Below, in pieces: positions 26,325 to 43,701 of a stretch of DNA of 64,000 bases. Every line of letters begins with the position of its first letter. Within the stretch, counting starts at the first letter, position 1. Location of the stretch: NCBI GenBank assembly GCA_032161105.1, contig JAVHTD010000005.1; one strand, 5' to 3'. The DNA comes from Candidatus Thermosaccharophagus tengchongensis (GTDB lineage Bacteria > Armatimonadota > Fervidibacteria > Fervidibacterales > Thermosaccharophagaceae). The notes beneath the pieces were generated by a model. It saw only the letters and a program-made list of their open reading frames with translations, did no database searches and was not told where the DNA came from. The position numbers and the translations under genes were made by a program.

Positions 26325-29300
26325 TCATCGGCTTGCGTCCTCTCCCTGCATAAACCGAACCATATCAAGCGGCTTGAGCTGAGTTGGCTCATCAAGCCAC
26401 TTTAGGAAGACTTTCACAGCTTGCGATTTGGTCATCTCGCGTCCTATAAGCCTTTCACACAGCGATTTCAAGCTCCTCACGGCGATCGGCGTCGGCGATA
26501 TTGCCGCATTGATGCACTCAATCACATCGTCGCTGAGCGCTTCAAGCCAGACATCATTACTCTCGCTCGCGCTCAAGCTCAGCAGGCGCTTCAACCGCTG
26601 CCTCGTGATGGATGTCGGAAGGCGTTCCATGAATGATTCAACTTTGCCCCTCAAATCTGGTGCAAGGAGGCGCCCCTTGCACTCATCGGCTATCTCCTCA
26701 ATCCGCTTTTCCATCTCCTCAGGCGGTGTTAGGGAGAGGTGTTCGCCGAGCATCAGCTTGCAGCTCTGGCACACTGGCGAGTCACGAAGCTGGCGCATAA
26801 GCTGCTCTTTTGTGACGGTGCATCGCTTTGACAGTTCGGCTCCGATTGCCCTAATCGCCTCAGCAGCGCCCATCACCTGCAGGCGTAGCTGCGCCGCTCT
26901 GCTGAGCAGCCTGAAGGCGCTGTGATGCCTGAGCTTGATGTATGGCTCAAAGCGTGAGGCGTTATGTTCATTCTCGTGGTGTGTCAAATATTGCTCCGTG
27001 TAATTGCGGAGCAACTCCTCCCAAGACGAGATGAGCCAATCAAGCTTGCCCAAGATGACTTCACCTTCATCAATGCTCTCAACCAAGCGCTCTGAGAGCA
27101 CTTTCAGTTCATCGCTGAGCCTCAAATTCGCGCTCGTTAGCCAAGCGTGTATTTTCCGCAGCTCGCCGCACTTTGCCAGCGAGTTGTAAATTTGAACGCA
27201 CACATCCCATGCTGACTTGAGTTCATCTTCGCTCACTCCGTTGGCGTGGAGGGTTGCAACCCATCCTTTGAGACCATCATGCGGCATCAGCTCATCTGAT
27301 ATGGCGCTTACGGCTACACTTACAGTCCCAATGGCATTGAGCGATTGAGACCACATGGCGCTGCTGTGTTGCAGTTGCGTCATTAGCGTGACCAATTCGC
27401 CGTGCGCCCGTTCGCACATTTCGGATGCATGTCCCTTCCACGAGGTGAGGTTTCTCCAGAGCACTTGAACTGCAGCTGGATGAGGGGAGCCCTCAACTTT
27501 TGGTGGCGGTATTTGGATGGCGCTCGCATACGAAGTTACGGCTTCCCAAGTTTCTCGGTCAACGAGCGGTGCTGCGCTTAATGCTGCCACTTGCCTGTGG
27601 AGTGGTGAGCCAAGCCGTTGCGGCAGCAACGGTGAGCCGTATCTGTCATGCGCCATAACCTCGCCACGCCTGAGCAGCGCCGCAATGAGCAATTCAAGCT
27701 GCTCATCACGGAGCCCATACTCGCTTTTACGGGCTGTAGCGGCAAGCTGCTCATATGCAATTGGCGCATCCAAGCTGGCTATTAGCTCGCATATGAGCTT
27801 TAAAGCGCCCTCGCATGGTGCAGCGCCATCAAGCACCTGTGTAGTTATTCCGAGCGGCATTGCAACGCATCTCCAAAGCTCCTTCAGGTCGGCGCTCAGC
27901 CTTTGCGGGTTCTCACCAGCTAAGATTGAGTTGATGAGCCTTTTATGTTCGTCCGAGGGGCGCAACGGTGAGCGTGGTGCAACGGATGTAAACTGGGGGA
28001 AGACCTTCGGAACAGATGCGCCAGCGATTGCCACAAGGACATCGCTAAGGGATGCCTCAGTCGGTATGAGCGCCGATATGGGGAGCTTCCTTTCACCGAC
28101 GAGCAATGTGCCGCCTAAGTATGCATTGCGCATTATCCGCTGCGTCTCATTTGCCCTTGCAGTCTCCTCCTCCCGCAAGCGCTTGTATATTGCCATTCCA
28201 ATGTCGCTATCCCTGAGCGATGGGTCGTTTATCAGGATTGATGCAGCAGCGTTTTCCGTCAGGCGAATCATCTCGCCTCTGCCGATTGTTTTCGGGATGA
28301 GAATGGCTATTGCGAACTTGAACCGATTCTCCTCAAGTGAGCGCAGCAGCTCCGCAGCGCACTTAACTTGCTCATCTGTTGCGATTGGCGGCGCGATGAG
28401 AATGTGGATATCGTAAGTGCACGATGGGGAAGCGATATGGTGTTGAAGTCTGAGCAGCCACTCAGCTGTAACCTCCCTCAGGTCAATGCACTGCAGCATG
28501 AGATTGAACTGCGCATTTTGCCACTCAACTGCCGCTGTTCGCCCAAAGCCGATTTGCGGCATTGGCAGCGGTGATGTTGACATCGCCCTTAACGCATATT
28601 CAATCACCCTGATGTCCCCTTCCGAGAGTGTGTCAATTAACGCCTGCAGCCTCCGCCGAAGCATTTCCGTTGTGGTTGCGCCCAAGTCAACGGAATACAC
28701 ATCGCCGTAATCTTCCTCACGCCTGAGGCAGTCAATGTAGTTTGCGCTCATGCGCAATGTCTCCAGCAGCGAGAGCATGTAGCTGTAGTTCATTTCGGCA
28801 CCCAAGCCCAAGTCCCAAAGGAATGTGTGAGAGAGCTTCCTCACTGGCGCATCCATGCCCGCAATCTTGAATGCCACAAGCGCCCTCACAAGCTTCCTCA
28901 CAGCTTCCTTTCGCTCGGGGAAAAGTTCGCCCACCCTCTCATCAAGGTGAGGGACAACTTCGTCGGCGTATGAGTGCAGTTCGGGATGTGAAAGGATGTC
29001 GGCGTAAAAGTGCTCGTAGATTGCGTCTGGAGTGATTAGTTGAAATGCATCACAGTCGGCAAGGCGCATCGCTTGACTTTGAACGAAATCAACGATTGAG
29101 CGAGTCCTTGAGAAGAATCGTCCAGCGGCTCTCTCAAGGCATGCGAGCGTGAACGGGTGCAGCGGATAGCACGCCATCAATTCCTCAGCGCTGAATTCAA
29201 TCATGGGGAAGGCTTGTGTGAGTTTTCGGTGCCATTGGAGCATGAGTTGTGTGAACTGGCGCTCGTCCTTCAGCGGGAGCAAGTTCCTTCGTATGAGCTG

Positions 29301-30101
29301 GCGTGCATGCGCAAACGAAAGCGCATAGCGCACATATCTGTCCTTGATTTGCGTTATGGAATACGGCTCAAGCTCACCGAGCTCCTCAACTGTTCGTTGT
29401 ATGGCTGCGATCAACCATGTATGCGAGCGCTGGCAATATTGCGCGATGAATTGAAGGAATGACGCATCAGCTTGCAGTTGGCTGTGTTCCTTTGCCTGAA
29501 GAAACATTGAGAGCTCATCAATGAGCCAAAGCATGCGCTCATACCCAAGCTCATTTGCAGCCCTTTGAAGTGCTCCGAGCGCCTCAGCACGCGATGGCGG
29601 CATTTTGGTCGGCAGATTTTGAGTTGCCTTGTGAGGGTGAATTCGCCTCAGCGATGCGACGGTCTCTTCCCAGAGAATTTGCTCAAGCGGCGCTTTTGGG
29701 GAATAGGAATCCAAGCTGATGAATGTGACCAACCACTTGTGCTTAGCGATTTCGCTCACCAATTTGGCATAGCGTTCGTGCGAGCGCGTGAAGAGCTCTC
29801 TCGCCCATTGGAACTGGCAGAGGAGCCCGATGATGGCGAGCATATGGCTTTTCCCCGTCCCGAACGCGCCGCTAACCATGTATGCGCAGCCATTCGCTTT
29901 GCTCATGCCCGTGAGTATGCCCTCAATTGCGGCTTCATTTGCCCCGTGAACGACGAGGTATGATGCCGTGATTTCTCGCAGCGCCTCTTGCCTTGCCCCT
30001 TCAAGTTCGGCGTGAGCGGCATGTGAGATGCTGGCGAGTTGAATTACGGTTGGCACGCCCCTTATCTCCACTAAGTCGCCAATTCGCATGAGAGGATTCA
30101 C
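26325..30101 (-). CDS. Large P-loop ATPase, DUF6079 / BREX BrxC-like
   Basis: N-terminus MRIGDLVEI..TVIQL, Walker A GAFGTGKSH, Walker B LWLIDEL, YPLHP, a coiled-coil middle and a C-terminal C..PVCQSC cluster. Confidence 0.7.
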   Translation of the reverse strand: MNPLMRIGDLVEIRGVPTVIQLASISHAAHAELEGARQEALREITASYLVVHGANEAAIEGILTGMSKANGCAYMVSGAFGTGKSHMLAIIGLLCQFQWARELFTRSHERYAKLVSEIAKHKWLVTFISLDSYSPKAPLEQILWEETVASLRRIHPHKATQNLPTKMPPSRAEALGALQRAANELGYERMLWLIDELSMFLQAKEHSQLQADASFLQFIAQYCQRSHTWLIAAIQRTVEELGELEPYSITQIKDRYVRYALSFAHARQLIRRNLLPLKDERQFTQLMLQWHRKLTQAFPMIEFSAEELMACYPLHPFTLACLERAAGRFFSRTRSIVDFVQSQAMRLADCDAFQLITPDAIYEHFYADILSHPELHSYADEVVPHLDERVGELFPERKEAVRKLVRALVAFKIAGMDAPVRKLSHTFLWDLGLGAEMNYSYMLSLLETLRMSANYIDCLRREEDYGDVYSVDLGATTTEMLRRRLQALIDTLSEGDIRVIEYALRAMSTSPLPMPQIGFGRTAAVEWQNAQFNLMLQCIDLREVTAEWLLRLQHHIASPSCTYDIHILIAPPIATDEQVKCAAELLRSLEENRFKFAIAILIPKTIGRGEMIRLTENAAASILINDPSLRDSDIGMAIYKRLREEETARANETQRIMRNAYLGGTLLVGERKLPISALIPTEASLSDVLVAIAGASVPKVFPQFTSVAPRSPLRPSDEHKRLINSILAGENPQRLSADLKELWRCVAMPLGITTQVLDGAAPCEGALKLICELIASLDAPIAYEQLAATARKSEYGLRDEQLELLIAALLRRGEVMAHDRYGSPLLPQRLGSPLHRQVAALSAAPLVDRETWEAVTSYASAIQIPPPKVEGSPHPAAVQVLWRNLTSWKGHASEMCERAHGELVTLMTQLQHSSAMWSQSLNAIGTVSVAVSAISDELMPHDGLKGWVATLHANGVSEDELKSAWDVCVQIYNSLAKCGELRKIHAWLTSANLRLSDELKVLSERLVESIDEGEVILGKLDWLISSWEELLRNYTEQYLTHHENEHNASRFEPYIKLRHHSAFRLLSRAAQLRLQVMGAAEAIRAIGAELSKRCTVTKEQLMRQLRDSPVCQSCKLMLGEHLSLTPPEEMEKRIEEIADECKGRLLAPDLRGKVESFMERLPTSITRQRLKRLLSLSASESNDVWLEALSDDVIECINAAISPTPIAVRSLKSLCERLIGREMTKSQAVKVFLKWLDEPTQLKPLDMVRFMQGEDASR

Positions 30102-36206: not shown

Positions 36207-36329
36207 GGCTATCTCCTTTGGTGAGGTAAGTTATCGCCCTGCGTTGCTGCGCAATGTTTTATAGCGCAGGAGCATCATTAGCATCGGGTTTGAATTGCGA
36301 TATCGTCCACGGACGCTCCGCAGTTCGGG

Positions 36330-36369
36330 TTGACTTTGACAAATAAGTGCGTTAAACTGATGTAACGCA
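36330..36369 (+). promoter_or_regulatory. Sigma70-type promoter overlapped by an inverted-repeat operator
   Basis: TTGACT (36330-36335), 17 nt, then TAAACT (36353-36358). TGCGTTA-N8-TAACGCA spans 36348-36369. Confidence 0.55.
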
Positions 36370-36468
36370 ATGTGGGGTGAGGGAGCAATTTGCCCCAAGG
36401 TGTTTATGCGCCCGTAAGGTAACTGGTGTTCAACGAGAGCCAGTTTTTTGACGAGGGAGTTGAGAGGG

Positions 36469-37317
36469 ATGGTTGAGAGGGGCGTTATTTTGGCAGCTGG
36501 GCGTGGAACAAGGTTACACCCCGTTACAAAGACGCAGCCAAAGGAAATGGTCCCAGTTGGCAGGAAGCCAGCAATTGAATATATCGTTGAGGAATTAGCG
36601 CAAGCTGGTATCGCAGACATCCTCATAGTGACGGGGAAACAGAAGTCTTCATTGGAAGCATATTTTGATGATGGTGTCCCGCCCAAATACGACTCGTCGG
36701 TAAATGGCGCTCGCATTTACTTTGTAAGGCAACCTCAACCGCTTGGCACAGGCGATGCGGTTAAGCGTGCGGTTGGTTGGACAAACGATAAACCGTTCGT
36801 CGTTGCGATGGGAGACTGCATAATTTGGTCAAGCAGCCGTGACAACATTACTCAAGAACTCATTGAAGTTCACGAACGATACAATGCTGCAGCAACAATC
36901 GCGGTTGAATTGGTGAGCAAACAGGAGACAAACAAATACGGCGTAGTCAGCGTTAAAGGACATGGACGAATAGCGCGGTTGACGGGCATTGTTGAAAAGC
37001 CACCGCCAGAGAAAGCTCCAAGCAGACTCGCCATTGCTGGAAGGTATGTGTTTGACCCGATTATCTATGATGCATTGAACGAGGTTGAGGTTTGCAATGA
37101 AGGTGAGTTGGGCATAACCGATGCGATCGCCGTATTAGTGAACAAGGGTTTTCCGGTTTATTGCGTCAGGCTTAAGAGAGGACAAGTTCGGATGGATGTC
37201 GGAAACTTTGAGGGTTACTTCAAAGCGTTCATTTGGGCTGCAATTAACGATAAGGAACATGGTGGCTTGATCGCTACCTTCATCCGACGGATACTCAATT
37301 CTACCAGACAGGTTTGA
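36469..37317 (+). CDS. Sugar-phosphate nucleotidyltransferase (GalU-like)
   Basis: Motifs ILAAGRGTRLHPVTKTQPKEM, RQPQPLGTGDAV, VEKP, GRYVF and DVGN. Confidence 0.85.
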   Translation: MVERGVILAAGRGTRLHPVTKTQPKEMVPVGRKPAIEYIVEELAQAGIADILIVTGKQKSSLEAYFDDGVPPKYDSSVNGARIYFVRQPQPLGTGDAVKRAVGWTNDKPFVVAMGDCIIWSSSRDNITQELIEVHERYNAAATIAVELVSKQETNKYGVVSVKGHGRIARLTGIVEKPPPEKAPSRLAIAGRYVFDPIIYDALNEVEVCNEGELGITDAIAVLVNKGFPVYCVRLKRGQVRMDVGNFEGYFKAFIWAAINDKEHGGLIATFIRRILNSTRQV

Positions 37318-37452
37318 AGCATGATCTTCTGATGCATGTCAATACCGCTTGCGACTTTCCAAATTGCCAAATCGCTGCTAAAATGGAATATAGAAGCGCA
37401 AGCTAAAGCTTGCGCACAAAAATAAAAAAATCAACACAGGGAGGTGTGAGCG

Positions 37453-37755
37453 ATGGAGGCAAAGTATGTGCTTGTCGTCACGAAGAATGGCTACGCAAAG
37501 CGAGTGCCCATAGAGGATGTGCGTGTCCGTAAGCGCCCTGCAAAGGGTGTTTCCGGAGTTGACCTTGCTGAAGGTGATACGCTCATTGCAGCACTGCCGG
37601 TTGGCGAGGGTGGTGAGATTGTCGTCGCAACAGTGCAAGGGCGCGTTGTCAGACTTAGGTTGGAAGAAATCAAGACCGCATCGCGCTCCGCAAAAGGCTC
37701 TCGCTTGATGGTGCTTGAGGAGGGCGACTCTATAGCCAGTGTTGCTCTCATATAG
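37453..37755 (+). CDS. Stand-alone protein made of two DNA gyrase A C-terminal (beta-pinwheel) repeats
   Basis: Two ~48-aa repeats: VLVVTKNGYAKRVPIEDVRVRKRPAKGV..LAEGDTLIAA and IVVATVQGRVVRLRLEEIKTASRSAKGS..LEEGDSIASV. SD GGAGGTG, double stop TAGTAG and its own terminator. Confidence 0.8.
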   Translation: MEAKYVLVVTKNGYAKRVPIEDVRVRKRPAKGVSGVDLAEGDTLIAALPVGEGGEIVVATVQGRVVRLRLEEIKTASRSAKGSRLMVLEEGDSIASVALI

Positions 37756-37812
37756 TAGACACAAGCTGCCAAATGGAAGTGTAGGGGAACATTCAGCTGC
37801 AATTAAAAGTGC

Positions 37813-37850
37813 AAGCGTCGGGTTAGGATACCCGACGCTTTTGCTATTTT
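37813..37850 (+). terminator. Intrinsic terminator after the mini-GyrA-CTD gene
   Basis: 11-bp perfect stem AAGCGTCGGGT / ACCCGACGCTT followed by TTGCTATTTT. Confidence 0.75.
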
Positions 37851-37900
37851 AGGCTCTATTCTGTGGAAAGGTATTCAGTGATGCATCGGAGGTAGGGGAT

Positions 37901-37925
37901 AAAAAGCCCCTACGGGTGGCTTTTT
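37901..37925. terminator. Probable (bidirectional) intrinsic terminator at the end of the yqhG-like gene
   Basis: AAAAAGCCCC-TAC-GGGTGGC-TTTTT: a GC hairpin flanked by A5 and T5. Confidence 0.6.
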
Positions 37926-39861
37926 AGCTCCATTTCTTCAGGTGGCGTAAGAGCCATAGCGTGCTTAATTGCTTCGTTAAAATTGTTTTGCCAGAGCCAT
38001 CGGCAACAACGAGCAAGCCGTTCATCCCGTCACGCCACAGATAAATTGCCCTGTATTGCGTCGCAATAAAACGGCAGTTTTTCCCCTTTAAATCGTGTTT
38101 TGGCATTGGCTGTGGAAGCAATGATGGTGGTAGTTTGCGCTCCAGCGATTTGAGCAAATTAATGCATAAGCTGCACATTGTTTTCCCTTTCAAGCACGAA
38201 AAGCAGTATCTTTGCTCGCAAAGTATGCATTTGCTACTGCACAGGTGGCAAACAGTTGCCCCACAAATGCCGCACTGCGTGACATGTTTCGGGCAAACTA
38301 TTTTAGCGCATGATTGACAATAAACGACATGTTCGCTGCAGAGGGTAGTTGAACAACAGTTGGCTCTAAAAGCGTGCATTGTGCAAATATTTGAACCGCA
38401 ACTTGAGCAAATATTTCTGCATTTCGCGCAAATTATTTGCCCACATGTTGAACACACTGAGCCGTCCTCAGCGCAGACAGACTTGCCACAGGTGGAGCAT
38501 CTGTGAATTCTCTCACTGTTTTGTTGCAAACAATCATTACAAATTGCCTTATCACACACAGTGCAGATAATGGCATCATTGGCACATACAATCTTTCCAC
38601 ATATGTAGCATTCAGCTGAACACATCTTACAGATTCCTCTCCCGCAAAACTCACATTTTGCGCTGTGTGGCTCGCAAATTCGCTTGCCGCAAATTTCGCA
38701 CACCATAAAGCATTCCTTGCAAACAGGCAGATTGCAAATTTCGCAAAAGCCCTCAATGCAACCTCTGCAGTATGCTCTGCCACATGTTGAGCATTCCAAA
38801 ATGCAATCGCTACACACAGCGTGTTTACATGCGCAAAGGTTTACAAGGCTCATTTGTGAGGCACAACTGGCACATGTTGGGAGAGCGAAAGTGCCATCAT
38901 AAAGGTTGTGGTAAGCCTTGAAGGACAGTTGATGTGAGTCCTGCACCACAGTAAACTTGAATTCAGCCACTGGAACGCTAATTTCAGCGATACCCACAAC
39001 ATGAATTGAGACGAAAGGTTGACGCCTTTGCGCTTCCTCTTCCATCCTCTCATTCCTCTCATCAATCAACCTTTCCATTTCGTGCCAAAATTGCCTGCTA
39101 TTTCCCGCTTTGATGGCAGCTTCTCCGAACAGGCTGGAGTAATAGCTCGCAATGCGCATAAGTTCGGCTTTTGAGCGCTCACGCGCGGTTTTGGTCAACC
39201 CAGAAAGCCAATCTGATAGCAAACTTTCGTGCCTCTCTTTGAGCAATTCAAGGAGCTTTCTCAGAAGCGAACGGTTATACGATGGTTTTGCTGGTTTGGC
39301 GTCAAAAAGAATTCTGTCCACCCTGTGAGTGACATCCTCAACAAATCCGTTTTCAAGCACCATAAAGCTTTTTAGCGCGCCTTTTTCGTATGCTGGCGTG
39401 CAAGATAATGAGAGACTGACAAGTAAACCACGCAACTTTGCCCTCCTTCTCTTGACCGAGATAAGCTTGCAATTCCCGAAGCGCAAATTCGGCTCCGTTG
39501 GCTTTTCAACCTCGGGCAATTCAATGGCGATATGCAATGCAGCGGACTTTAGCCACTCGTGGACGCGATGGAAAAGTCGACTTCCGGGAGAAAATAGCAG
39601 GGCACCTTGAACAGCTTCGCACGCATCCTTTTCAAACACGACGATGAGCTCTTCACTGTCCCATTCAAACGGGGAACCTTCAGGCAACACGATTTGCAGC
39701 AATTTCCCTCTATCTATCACCTTTGCACCGATGGACTTGAAAAATTGGCGGCATAAAAAACGAAGCCATGATTCCAAATCATTGGCTGTGGTCGCATTAC
39801 ACACTGTATCCCGATCCAATCGCTCAAATTGCCGCATTTTTATCCCCCGCCGAGGGCACAA
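37924..39861 (-). CDS. YqhG-like helicase partner with a long C-terminal Cys/His tandem-repeat domain
   Basis: Directly downstream of the YqhH-like helicase. N-terminal PGSRLF and ELMRIASYY motifs and a coiled coil, then about 13 C-x2-C-x4-C-x2-[CHD] units. Confidence 0.6.
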   Translation of the reverse strand: MCPRRGIKMRQFERLDRDTVCNATTANDLESWLRFLCRQFFKSIGAKVIDRGKLLQIVLPEGSPFEWDSEELIVVFEKDACEAVQGALLFSPGSRLFHRVHEWLKSAALHIAIELPEVEKPTEPNLRFGNCKLISVKRRRAKLRGLLVSLSLSCTPAYEKGALKSFMVLENGFVEDVTHRVDRILFDAKPAKPSYNRSLLRKLLELLKERHESLLSDWLSGLTKTARERSKAELMRIASYYSSLFGEAAIKAGNSRQFWHEMERLIDERNERMEEEAQRRQPFVSIHVVGIAEISVPVAEFKFTVVQDSHQLSFKAYHNLYDGTFALPTCASCASQMSLVNLCACKHAVCSDCILECSTCGRAYCRGCIEGFCEICNLPVCKECFMVCEICGKRICEPHSAKCEFCGRGICKMCSAECYICGKIVCANDAIICTVCDKAICNDCLQQNSERIHRCSTCGKSVCAEDGSVCSTCGQIICAKCRNICSSCGSNICTMHAFRANCCSTTLCSEHVVYCQSCAKIVCPKHVTQCGICGATVCHLCSSKCILCEQRYCFSCLKGKTMCSLCINLLKSLERKLPPSLLPQPMPKHDLKGKNCRFIATQYRAIYLWRDGMNGLLVVADGSGKTILTKQLSTLWLLRHLKKWS

Positions 39862-39890
39862 CTTCGGCGATTAAACACATCCGCTCATCA

Positions 39891-41693
39891 TCAGCTTTGC
39901 CTTATGAGCTCCCAAAGCATCTGGTTTGCCTGCCTTATGCGCTCGTAACGCTCCGCTGCCCTCTGAATAAGTTTCCCAATTTGTGAAAGGCGCTCTTTTT
40001 CCTCATCTGGCGTCTCGCTCTGCATGATTGCTTCTGCAACAAGCCGTTCAATGCTCTCTTCAAGGTGTGCGATACCGAGCATTAGCTCAAGTTCGCCAAC
40101 CGTCATCTCAAACAAGCCGATCTTCGTTATTAGCAACTCAAGTATGCGCTCTTCAACTGTGTGTTCTGTTGCCAAGTTTACAACGAACACGGGCTTATCC
40201 TGTCCCAACCTGTGAACACGCCCGATGCGCTGCTCAAGGCGCATAGGATTCCAAGGTAGGTCAAAATTGATCACCACTCTGCAGAACTGTAAGTTTCGCC
40301 CTTCGGCTCCTGACTCCGTGCTTATCATTATCCTCGCGCTTTCTCTGAACCTCTCAACAGCCCTGTCCTTTGCCCTTTCGCTCATGCTCCCATGATACAG
40401 GACGACTTCCTCACCGCGTTTTTCAAGGGCTTCCTTGAGCAACTCCATACTCGCGATGTAATCGGTGAATATGAGCACCTTCTCCTCAATTGCGTTCACA
40501 AGTTGTGCGGTGTGCTCAACCTTTGCGCATAGCGGTGTCGCCCTCGCAAGCTCATAAAATTCAGCCAGCCGTTCCCTTATCTCGTCCGGATATTCATCAC
40601 ACACCATCTTTAGCAAAGTCCTTTCCACCGCACGGGGCGTGCTGCAAAGTTCCTTTTGAAGCAATATGAGCGTAAGCTTCAAATGCCTTTCCTTCCCGGA
40701 CGACTTGCTGAGCCGCTTATAGCTCTGCCTCAAAAAAGTCGTCATCTCTTCATACAAGCGAAGTTCTGGCGGAGTGAGTGAGATGTAATGTGTTGTAGCG
40801 TATCTCGGTGGAAGCATTATTCCAACTTCGTCCCTATGATGCCGTATCATCACCGATGAGATCAACCGGCGCAGCTCCCCAACATTCTTTGGCATCCTCG
40901 GATCATCAGCCATAACATACCGCCTTTTGAAGCTCTGCAGTGTTCCAAGCTGACCCGGCTTTATCAGGGTCACAAGGTTGTAAAGTTCAAGCAGGTTGTT
41001 CTGAATAGGAGTTGCGGTTAGAAGCAGAGTGTAGCGCTTTCGTATCTTGCGGCAGAAGCGATGGGCAAGCGTTGAGCTGTTCCTAAGTTTGTGGGCTTCA
41101 TCAATTATGAGCAAGTCAAATTCACGCCCATGTATGGCGCTGCTATGAGGCTCGCGCTTTGCCAGGTCAATTGATCCTATTACGCGCTCATGCGAGAACC
41201 AATCATCCTTTCGCCGGGCTATGGTGAATGTCTCCCCAAACTTCTCAAGCATCTCATGACGCCATTGGTAGGTTAATGAAGCCGGCACGAGTATGAGCAC
41301 ACTTTTAACAAGTCCCCTCACGATCAGCTCTTTCATCACCAACCCGGCTTCAATTGTTTTGCCCAGACCGACATCATCGGCGAGTAAAGCACACCCACCC
41401 ATTTCGTTCAACACTCTTAAGGCGGTTTCAACTTGGTGCGGGAAGTGAGAAATGCGCACTTGACCCCAGCATTGCAACTCCTCAAAGGATTGCATGGCAC
41501 GAAGCTGCTCAGCCATCAGCAACAGAAAGTGGGCTTCATTTGATGGGATAGAGCACTCCGAAGCAGTGAAGTCGGGTATGCGCCACTCAACGATTGGGGT
41601 AAAATCCAGGAACTTTTCCGCCACTTTTTCCGGGGACATCCACTCGCTATCATCATCCAGCTTTTCATGCTTGTAAAGTTCAGCCTTTGGCAT
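39891..41693 (-). CDS. SNF2-family helicase (Bacillus YqhH-like)
   Basis: Motifs PHQ, LADDVGLGKT, DEAH, LLTATPIQN, ESGAEGRNLQ and DLPWNPMRLEQRIGRVHRLGQ. Confidence 0.88.
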   Translation of the reverse strand: MPKAELYKHEKLDDDSEWMSPEKVAEKFLDFTPIVEWRIPDFTASECSIPSNEAHFLLLMAEQLRAMQSFEELQCWGQVRISHFPHQVETALRVLNEMGGCALLADDVGLGKTIEAGLVMKELIVRGLVKSVLILVPASLTYQWRHEMLEKFGETFTIARRKDDWFSHERVIGSIDLAKREPHSSAIHGREFDLLIIDEAHKLRNSSTLAHRFCRKIRKRYTLLLTATPIQNNLLELYNLVTLIKPGQLGTLQSFKRRYVMADDPRMPKNVGELRRLISSVMIRHHRDEVGIMLPPRYATTHYISLTPPELRLYEEMTTFLRQSYKRLSKSSGKERHLKLTLILLQKELCSTPRAVERTLLKMVCDEYPDEIRERLAEFYELARATPLCAKVEHTAQLVNAIEEKVLIFTDYIASMELLKEALEKRGEEVVLYHGSMSERAKDRAVERFRESARIMISTESGAEGRNLQFCRVVINFDLPWNPMRLEQRIGRVHRLGQDKPVFVVNLATEHTVEERILELLITKIGLFEMTVGELELMLGIAHLEESIERLVAEAIMQSETPDEEKERLSQIGKLIQRAAERYERIRQANQMLWELIRQS

Positions 41694-42241: not shown

Positions 42242-42427
42242 ATGGGCAAGGGCTTAAAAGGCACAGGCGTTGAGCATCGCTGGCTGAAGAGGATTGCATG
42301 TGCTTCCCCACTAAGAGATCCTTCAACTCTTACGGAGTTGCTTAGCCACAAGCGTTGCGGATGCACCCCAAACGGCTGGCAGCCCCAAGATCAAGCACAT
42401 GGTGCAATACCCATGGGGAGGAGGTAA
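42242..42427 (+). CDS. Putative 61-aa leader ORF between the SAM-I aptamer and mat
   Basis: AGGAGG (42230-42235) lies 6 nt before ATG 42242. The TAA at 42425-42427 sits between the mat SD and the mat ATG. Confidence 0.5.
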   Translation: MGKGLKGTGVEHRWLKRIACASPLRDPSTLTELLSHKRCGCTPNGWQPQDQAHGAIPMGRR

Positions 42428-42432
42428 TTCAA

Positions 42433-43701
42433 ATGCACTTGAAGGTGAGCGCCGGTAAGAACATCACTGTTGATGACATGCCGATGGAGATAGTTGAGCG
42501 CAAGGGGAAGGGTCATCCTGACACGCTTTGTGATGGGGCTGCTGAGGAACTCAGCAGGATGCTATGCATGTTCTATCGTGAGCATGCTGGACGCATACTT
42601 CACCACAATGTGGACAAGTGTGTCCTTGCCGGTGGACGCTCATCACCGAGGCTTGGCGGGGGTGCAATTGAAGAGCCAATCTATGTTCTGCTTGTTGGCA
42701 GGGCAACTCTTGAGTGGCGTGGCTCACAGGATGAAATTCGGCGCGTGCCAATCGGGAGGATGGTGCTGCAGGGCATTCAGAGTTGGTTTAAGGAGCAGCT
42801 CCCACATTTGCCCATACCGGGCGCACTTATGGTTGACTACAGGATAAAGCGAGGAAGCGAGGACTTGATCGCCAATTACGACATGACCTCCAATGTTCCG
42901 AGGGCAAATGACACTTCGCTTGCGGTCGCATTTGCTCCCCTCTCAGCGACCGAGCAGCTCGTCAAAGAGACGGAGATGTTCCTCAACTCGCCCGAGTTGA
43001 AAGCCGAACTGCCAGCACTCGGTGAGGATATAAAGGTTATGGGGGTAAGGGTGGGCAGGCATATAAGGTTAACGGTGGCAGCTGCGTTCATTGACCGATA
43101 TGTGAGGTCAGTTAGCGAATACTACGAATTGAAGGAAGCGGTAAAGTGGAGACTCAAACAACACTTGTGGGAGAATTGCCTGACCAAGTTCCCGGTGGAG
43201 TATGATGTTGACATTGAGCTCAACACAGCTGATGAAGGCGATACCATTTACATCACCGTTACTGGGACGAGTGCCGAGTGCGGTGATGATGGACAGGTTG
43301 GGAGGGGTAACAGGATTAACGGATTGATAACACCATACCGCCCAATGAGCCTTGAAGCTGCAGCCGGCAAGAATCCTGTATCTCATGTCGGTAAGATCTA
43401 TCAGGTGATGGCTCAATTGATCGCAAACAAGCTTGTTGAAGCACGACCATCCCTCAGGCAAGTCTATTGCTATATGGTTAGCCAAATTGGGCATCCGATC
43501 ACAGATCCGCAAGCGGTCAACATTGAATACTACGGTGATGTGTCGGAAAGCGAGATGAGACAACTTGCAAGCAATGCTGTTGATCAAGTGTTATCGCAGT
43601 GGCGTGAAATACAAGATGGATTTGTTGAAGGGACATGGGGGGTTAACTACCCGGGCATGGTTGTTGCCCGCCAAGTTGAACCAGCCAAGAAGGGCACTTA
43701 A
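42433..43701 (+). CDS. mat: S-adenosylmethionine synthetase, archaeal type
   Basis: Motifs [48 protein letters not shown] and [23 protein letters not shown]. Confidence 0.9.

Follow-up and report, generated by a model that had tools for sequence, protein, structure and literature searches.

A conserved family of free-standing two-blade beta-pinwheel proteins related to the GyrA tail in Armatimonadota

Beta-pinwheels are known as modules of topoisomerases (PMC3797127). In the C-terminal domain (CTD) of GyrA the loop carrying the box of blade 1 closes the ring on blade 6, whereas the CTDs of ParC are open and have between zero and eight blades (PMC8216471). The same account derives the tail by duplication of a single blade; a two-blade step is absent from the part of it that was available. 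In Borrelia burgdorferi a GyrA-tail protein, Gac, exists apart from gyrase; it bends DNA, has been proposed to be a nucleoid protein, and acts as a repressor (PMC10127594). Gac is the whole 35-kDa CTD, produced from an internal promoter inside gyrA (PMC10127594), and because it is read from inside gyrA, its sequence is identical to that of GyrA. In the literature searched (most subscription journals lie outside its coverage) there is no description of a stand-alone two-blade pinwheel protein; the sole free form there, in the parts of the papers available, is Gac, a whole tail, and the conserved two-blade family reported below is previously undescribed in that literature.

The window analysed here is a stretch of 64,000 nucleotides of Candidatus Thermosaccharophagus tengchongensis (contig JAVHTD010000005.1), and all positions without a contig name refer to it. 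On the plus strand, at 37453..37755, it contains a gene with an ATG start (the mini gene) for a protein of 100 aa (P0001) that consists of two beta-pinwheel blades. The Shine-Dalgarno sequence GGAGGTG (37440..37446, plus strand) stands before it, with the ATG 6 nt downstream, and 23 of the 24 class members have an SD-type motif at their chosen start. The ORF ends in the tandem stop TAG TAG (37753-37758, plus strand), and an intrinsic terminator-like hairpin follows at 37813..37850 on the same strand (11 bp with a 6-nt loop, the stem-loop spanning 37813-37840, then a T-rich tail). A strong SD and an 11-bp terminator had been proposed in an earlier note on this DNA, and both are present; genome G003 has a hairpin similar to the terminator. 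The double stop described in that note exists here but is not conserved, G003 having a single TAA. The gene had also been called monocistronic, which fits the locus in the window but not the family: in genus g2 (18 genomes) the mini gene is in an apparent operon, with a co-oriented gene close behind it.

A putative sigma70-type promoter, with 9 of 12 consensus matches in a consensus scan, can be placed at 37356..37384 on the plus strand (-35 TTTCCA, 17-nt spacer, extended -10 TGc-TAAAAT). Since four sigma70-like sites were found in 3 kb of the region and 3.8 are expected by chance, this site is not significant by itself; its -10 sequence TAAAAT is kept in all four genomes of the genus. Directly after the -10 site, in the presumed 5' leader, there is an 8-bp palindrome or hairpin (37396..37415, plus strand), which possibly serves as an operator or 5' hairpin. 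Genome G003 retains it, the outer pair being changed from G-C to A-T in a compensatory manner, and it was not seen in G001 or G002. In the family a near-consensus promoter (loose pattern) was found upstream of 21 of 62 members, and a terminator downstream of 15 of 62.

Upstream of the mini gene a gene for a nucleotidyl-transferase (PF00483) ends at 37317. Downstream, in convergent orientation, lie a Cys-rich ORF and an SNF2 gene, and the SNF2 helicase and the Cys-rich protein adjoin the mini gene in all four genus members. On the minus strand of the window (26325-30101 and 37924-41693) a DUF6079 ATPase (1258 aa), the SNF2 helicase (600 aa) and the 645-aa Cys-rich protein, which has no Pfam match, are encoded; this set is possibly a defence or repair module. 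A SAM synthetase of family PF01941, which we take to be the archaeal type, here in a bacterium, is encoded at 42355-43701 on the plus strand.

The mini gene appears to be expressed, at thin RNA depth. Metatranscriptome X1 contains a contig of 415 nt, 97% identical to 37452-37866, that begins at the ATG and stops shortly beyond the terminator; the flanking genes have no cover. Among the 16 X1 contigs found over 20 kb, eight of which were not listed singly, this contig is the longest and deepest (12.7) of those listed; X1 was chosen by means of this stretch itself, the RNA counts are tiny, and some of the signal may come from DNA in the libraries. In X4, from another study, two read pairs fell on the mini gene with their first mates on the minus strand, as expected of plus-strand RNA in a typical stranded library; X2, X3 and X5 were without reads. 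An intergenic segment at 36221-36439, one of the 16 scattered X1 contigs, also has RNA cover, in two runs. It has no Rfam match and a weak fold (z -1.6), and it was not found in four relatives; perhaps it belongs to the nucleotidyl-transferase gene as its leader, or is background.

P0001 matched PF03989 in two stretches (E 1.8e-28), with 98.1 bits compared to the curated cut-off of 27, and no other Pfam family scored above cut-off. The earlier description of a 100-aa ORF made of only two GyrA/ParC repeats was thus confirmed, as were the two loops named in it, RKRPAKG (residues 26-32) and SRSAKG (77-82). Blade A (37462..37605, plus strand, approximately residues 4-51) is odd-type and closest to GyrA blade 5; it contains K16 and the box R28-x-x-x-G32. 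Blade B (37612..37752, plus strand, approximately residues 54-100) is even-type and nearest to blades 6 and 4 of GyrA; it holds the box R78-x-x-x-G82, R84 and D92. The AF2 model of the monomer has a pLDDT of 81.9 (below 50 in loop 29-34) and a pTM of 0.75. This predicted structure superposes on GyrA CTDs with TM values of 0.74-0.86 by query, and its Foldseek matches at E<=0.001 were in every case GyrA or ParC. Higher scores were obtained with gyrA models than with parC models; against the model of full-length gyrase subunit A (TIGR01063) the score of 67 bits compared to a cut-off of 877 shows that P0001 is not a full-length subunit, and the Pfam scan found no breakage-reunion domain (PF00521) in it.

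The minimal box (R/K)xxxG occurs in both blades of all 62 family sequences. P0001, with RKRPAKG, does not have the strict GyrA box Q(R/K)RGG(R/K)G; QKRGGKG is found in 3 of the 62 members. At position 29, where P0001 has Pro, 53 of 62 sequences have Gly. Residues K16, G32, G63, R78, G82 and D92 are invariant in the 62 sequences, and positions 28 and 84 are always K or R.

In the genome, which is 97% complete, eight PF03989 matches were detected, six in an intact 823-aa gyrA frame on another contig (C1) and two in the mini gene. P0001 is 34% identical to blades 5-6 of its own GyrA, 33% to blades 1-2 and 29% to blades 3-4, and there is no DNA-level match between the mini gene and the gyrA of the same genome. 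A tblastn search with the genome's own GyrA matched solely gyrA and the mini gene, so that no gyrA N-terminal remains lie near the latter, and no other GyrA or ParC pieces were found in the genome. These results, together with the distribution and selection data below and the gene's own SD, bear out the earlier proposal of an intact stand-alone gene, not a fragment, and we consider it practically certain that the mini gene is functional. As to gyrA itself, in G004:C14, G005:C4 and G008:C2 its reading frame has 1266-1276 aa; about 440 aa of it are inserted behind PF00521 position 93 and are likely an intein.

The distribution of the family was surveyed in 401 genomes of the phylum. A first profile, made of 25 sequences, gave extra matches, which were followed up in the 40 genomes with at least four matches or a short frame. 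Of the 40 extra loci, read at the DNA level, 39 were stand-alone genes (38 complete and one cut by a contig end) and one was a GyrA end. With a second profile (62 sequences) 83 of the 401 genomes matched at E<=1e-26, 69 with short frames and 14 with GyrA only. The mini gene is therefore present in 69 of the 401 sampled Armatimonadota genomes and in 9 of 51 families, always as a short open frame, nine of the 69 carriers being assigned by frame length only. The carriers are distributed as follows: f1 4/4, f2 17/17, f14 4/4, f20 7/12, f24 12/13, f25 12/13, f32 9/12, f45 1/1 and f46 3/3; in the other 42 families the gene was not found among the 12 candidates scored per genome. Within the class it occurs in 24 of 24 genomes, including seven in which the six-blade gyrA tail is incompletely assembled. 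Named carriers include Ca. Fervidibacter, Ca. Zipacnadia, WS1 and Armatimonadia MAGs, the last three seen in 20 of 80 genome loci. In databases the members are labeled 'hypothetical protein' or mislabeled 'DNA gyrase subunit A', the close ones coming from Armatimonadetes and Ca. Fervidibacter.

All 62 sequences are 96-106 aa long. The dN/dS values within the class had a median of 0.13 and a maximum of 0.60 (78 of 276 pairs usable), and for same-family pairs the median was 0.18 and the maximum 0.58 (135 of 142 usable). The family of conserved homologues of about 100 aa is under purifying selection. No conserved gene neighbourhood was found across families, the neighbours differing between them. 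In f2 (L012-L031) a conserved run of genes lies directly upstream of the mini gene, coding for a TPR-like protein, a protein like dihydrolipoamide dehydrogenase and two receivers of a single domain each, these labels being assigned by reading the sequences instead of by a family scan.

Members outside Armatimonadota were not found in profile, genome-locus and short-hit searches. A profile search of 1.84 billion representatives was dominated by full GyrAs, all of the 150 matches listed being at least 293 aa long. Among the 80 genome loci, 60 were proteobacterial and lay where a long open frame ends; these were read as GyrA ends. Of 107 short database matches, 97 belonged to three known mini clades and 10 resembled GyrA end fragments. 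The sole viral match was a 691-aa topoisomerase-like gene, and two clusters in the Atlas (110 and 113 aa; Actinomycetota, Bacillota) may be fragments.

In structure prediction with three copies of P0001 a head-to-tail homotrimer scored 0.90, compared to 0.00 for the best of three controls. In the calibration, made with two-copy cases, 20 of 30 solved homodimers came up to the mark for this complex score, as did one of the 23 monomers, and these rates are rough for three copies with a custom alignment. The contacts agreed to 100% between the runs, the pLDDT of the partner was at least 89, and the partner engaged both faces; in all three runs the scored copy was also engaged on both faces, with 179-194 contacts. 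In the modelled interface residues 23-36 and 43-49 of blade A meet residues 57-69, 83-87 and 95-100 of the neighbour's blade B, the scored copy giving the loop and strand of its blade A to one neighbour and accepting the same from the other. As modelled, this is a strand-swapped 'Velcro' contact. The pass may stem from the predictor's memory of solved GyrA CTDs. Judged from the model, it is highly probable that the protein forms a head-to-tail oligomer, and reasonably likely that this is a closed trimer.

The mechanism we propose starts from this contact. The loop and strand of blade A would pack on blade B of the next copy, as in the ring-closing contact of GyrA, and three copies would close a C3 ring equivalent to a six-blade pinwheel, with six box arginines round the rim. 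DNA could wrap on this ring in the manner of the GyrA CTD or of Gac, and the ring would constrain writhe without ATP or cleavage, making the mini-protein a small nucleoid-associated protein apart from the intact gyrase. To the mechanism as a whole, a trimeric six-blade pinwheel acting as a DNA-binding and -bending nucleoid protein, we assign a probability of roughly 55 per cent. A DNA-binding head-to-tail oligomer might instead remain an open arc or spiral, or be a tetramer or filament, resembling the C-shaped ParC tails. The modelled faces are self-complementary, so that any chain length is possible, and an open form with 0-8 blades is known from ParC CTDs (PMC8216471). What makes such forms unlikely is that the scored copy engages both faces with 179-194 contacts in three runs, that the length is fixed at two blades, and that blade A keeps a loop of the GyrA-box type, which is the ring-closing element in gyrase (PMC8216471).

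Another function to be weighed is modulation of the cognate gyrase. In each of 32 carriers checked there is a single type IIA A subunit (PF00521-bearing gene) and no ParC, and in f2 the degenerate blade-1 box of the GyrAs (7 of 7) could leave an open edge. The same single A subunit was found in 12 non-carriers, carriers from other families have a canonical GyrA box, the mini gene does not lie beside gyrA at any locus read, and in the homo-oligomer model both faces are already occupied. Taken together, these observations make a modulator improbable, and the self-assembled nucleoid protein is preferred. The box of f2, the Fervidibacter family, has a one-residue deletion in all seven gyrA genes read (L035-L040, L048); by analogy with Aquifex (PMC8216471) the sole type IIA enzyme of f2 may act like topo IV. 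A role as topo VI partner was rejected, TP6A_N being found in none of five genomes.

In the alignment with E. coli GyrA (range 743-836) R28 corresponds to R766 and R78 to R817, a mapping obtained by manual count with an insertion assumed to be placed as in the Salmonella alignment. Of the box arginines outside blade 1, R766 is conserved best; wrapping is abolished in R766A, whereas R817A leaves E. coli supercoiling unaffected (PMC7038939). With the isolated Salmonella CTD, DNA binding was weaker with R766A as well as with R817A (PMC7210945). From these sequence correspondences the mini-protein probably binds DNA. The modest net charge counts against this reading: it is +3 for P0001, +3 as the family median and negative in 10 of 62 members, compared to +6 for GyrA blades 5-6. 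The oligomer might accordingly bind RNA or a protein, its conserved arginines being mainly structural blade-to-blade locks. Such a function would suit the location of R28 and R78 inside the predicted subunit interface, the 10 acidic members and the position of the f2 gene, mostly behind two single-domain receiver genes. The receiver linkage is, however, limited to one family, and in GyrA the positions of both arginines make contact with DNA (PMC7038939, PMC7210945), which leaves another ligand a rather doubtful choice compared with DNA.

If the mini-protein is a nucleoid protein, it has no gap to fill in its hosts, since HU (PF00216) is present in 29 of 29 carriers. A role as replacement for HU was rejected on the same count; among 16 non-carrier Armatimonadota, HU was found in five and not found in 11.

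With respect to origin, the mini profile matched blades 5-6 of GyrA with 82.9 bits, 3-4 with 66.2 and 1-2 with 58.6. The last GyrA stretch was the best match in 140 of 146 other GyrAs, and f25 members matched the 3-4 position best. GyrA blades alternate between odd and even types, the pairing of 1 with 5 and the group of 2, 4 and 6 being clearest and blade 3 no more than weakly odd-type. In profile comparisons of the odd type, blade A scored 88 with b5, 65 with b1 and 55 with b3, and the GyrA blades with each other 55 (b1-b5), 44 (b1-b3) and 39 (b3-b5). For the even type, blade B scored 87 with b6, 81 with b4 and 47 with b2, compared to 66 (b4-b6), 38 (b2-b6) and 29 (b2-b4). These scores come from a GyrA set not chosen by similarity, and a second, mini-biased set gave the same pattern; the central position of the mini blades has to be read with the caveat that broader profiles also score higher. 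Scores at the sequence level concur, except that b3 is nearer to b1 than to A. The central position fits a relic two-blade unit as well as a copy of blades 5-6 kept near the consensus by three-fold symmetry.

Quick trees placed the mini sequences in three clades matching the host groups, in a polytomy. In AU tests a single mini origin (p 0.27-0.37), minis with blades 5-6 (p 0.52) and GyrA pairs without minis (p 0.35) were all retained. Since the family was found in one section of a single phylum, a derived origin is favoured. Most likely blades 5-6, at the 3' end of gyrA, were copied long ago in one Armatimonadota branch. The further reading that the family forms C3 homotrimeric pinwheels, as the smallest wheels known to wrap DNA, and also preserves the two-blade unit that was triplicated into the gyrase tail, is as a whole a long shot. 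The earlier note had offered the protein as a possible model for the ancestor of the pinwheel; because of the odd/even blade periodicity of GyrA it is an attractive structural analogue of that ancestor, but as history the idea is unsupported, because the trees fit several origins and members were found in some Armatimonadota families only. The mini gene could also be taken for a non-functional leftover of a duplicated gyrA 3' end, as is seen in G326 and G133, or for a ParC tail split off from its enzyme. Selection and distribution already refute both, and against them also stand the 34% identity to the own GyrA, the own SD and the RNA; nor was a tail-less second A subunit found, one PF00521-bearing gene being present in each of 32 carriers. 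The real remnants are start-less, near-identical copies of the last blade 3-5 kb downstream of gyrA (L191, G326:C2:84191-84331; L192, G133:C1:408877-408996) that bracket unrelated genes. Their appearance is that of islands inserted into the gyrA 3' end, and they may illustrate a possible route for 3'-end copies.

If a conserved two-blade protein does assemble by itself, the pinwheel can be oligomeric and symmetric, and a 10-kDa system becomes available for testing how DNA is wrapped and how handedness is set when all wheel positions are equal. The family would also let the amplification of the fold from blades be tested on a natural case, and a phylum that has been little studied would gain a candidate nucleoid protein. 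Were the relic reading true, 'one blade, two-blade trimer, then fusion' would supersede 'six copies of one blade'. A reverse gyrase zinc finger was found at G000:C2:200505 in a 1072-aa frame (in two of five genomes tested), which fits a thermophile, and because its host has reverse gyrase the mini-protein is probably heat-stable.

Every beta-pinwheel among the PDB matches is the single-chain tail of a type IIA topoisomerase. The mini-protein shares with the GyrA CTD (PF03989; PDB 1zi0, 5ztj, 1suu, 3uc1) the repeat and the fold, the arginines at the R766 and R817 positions and blades 5-6 as the best match. The GyrA CTD has six blades in one chain and the mini-protein two in 96-106 aa; the latter has its own gene, no breakage-reunion domain and no acidic tail, and its wheel would be built of identical subunits. 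ParC CTDs resemble it in fold, and their blade number can vary (PMC8216471), but they are open and fused to the enzyme, and the carriers of the mini gene lack ParC. Gac is likewise a GyrA-tail protein produced apart from gyrase. In contrast to Gac, the mini-protein is encoded by a separate gene on another contig than gyrA, is 34% identical to GyrA, has one third of the size and evolves independently. It likely works like Gac, yet is neither Gac nor GyrA.
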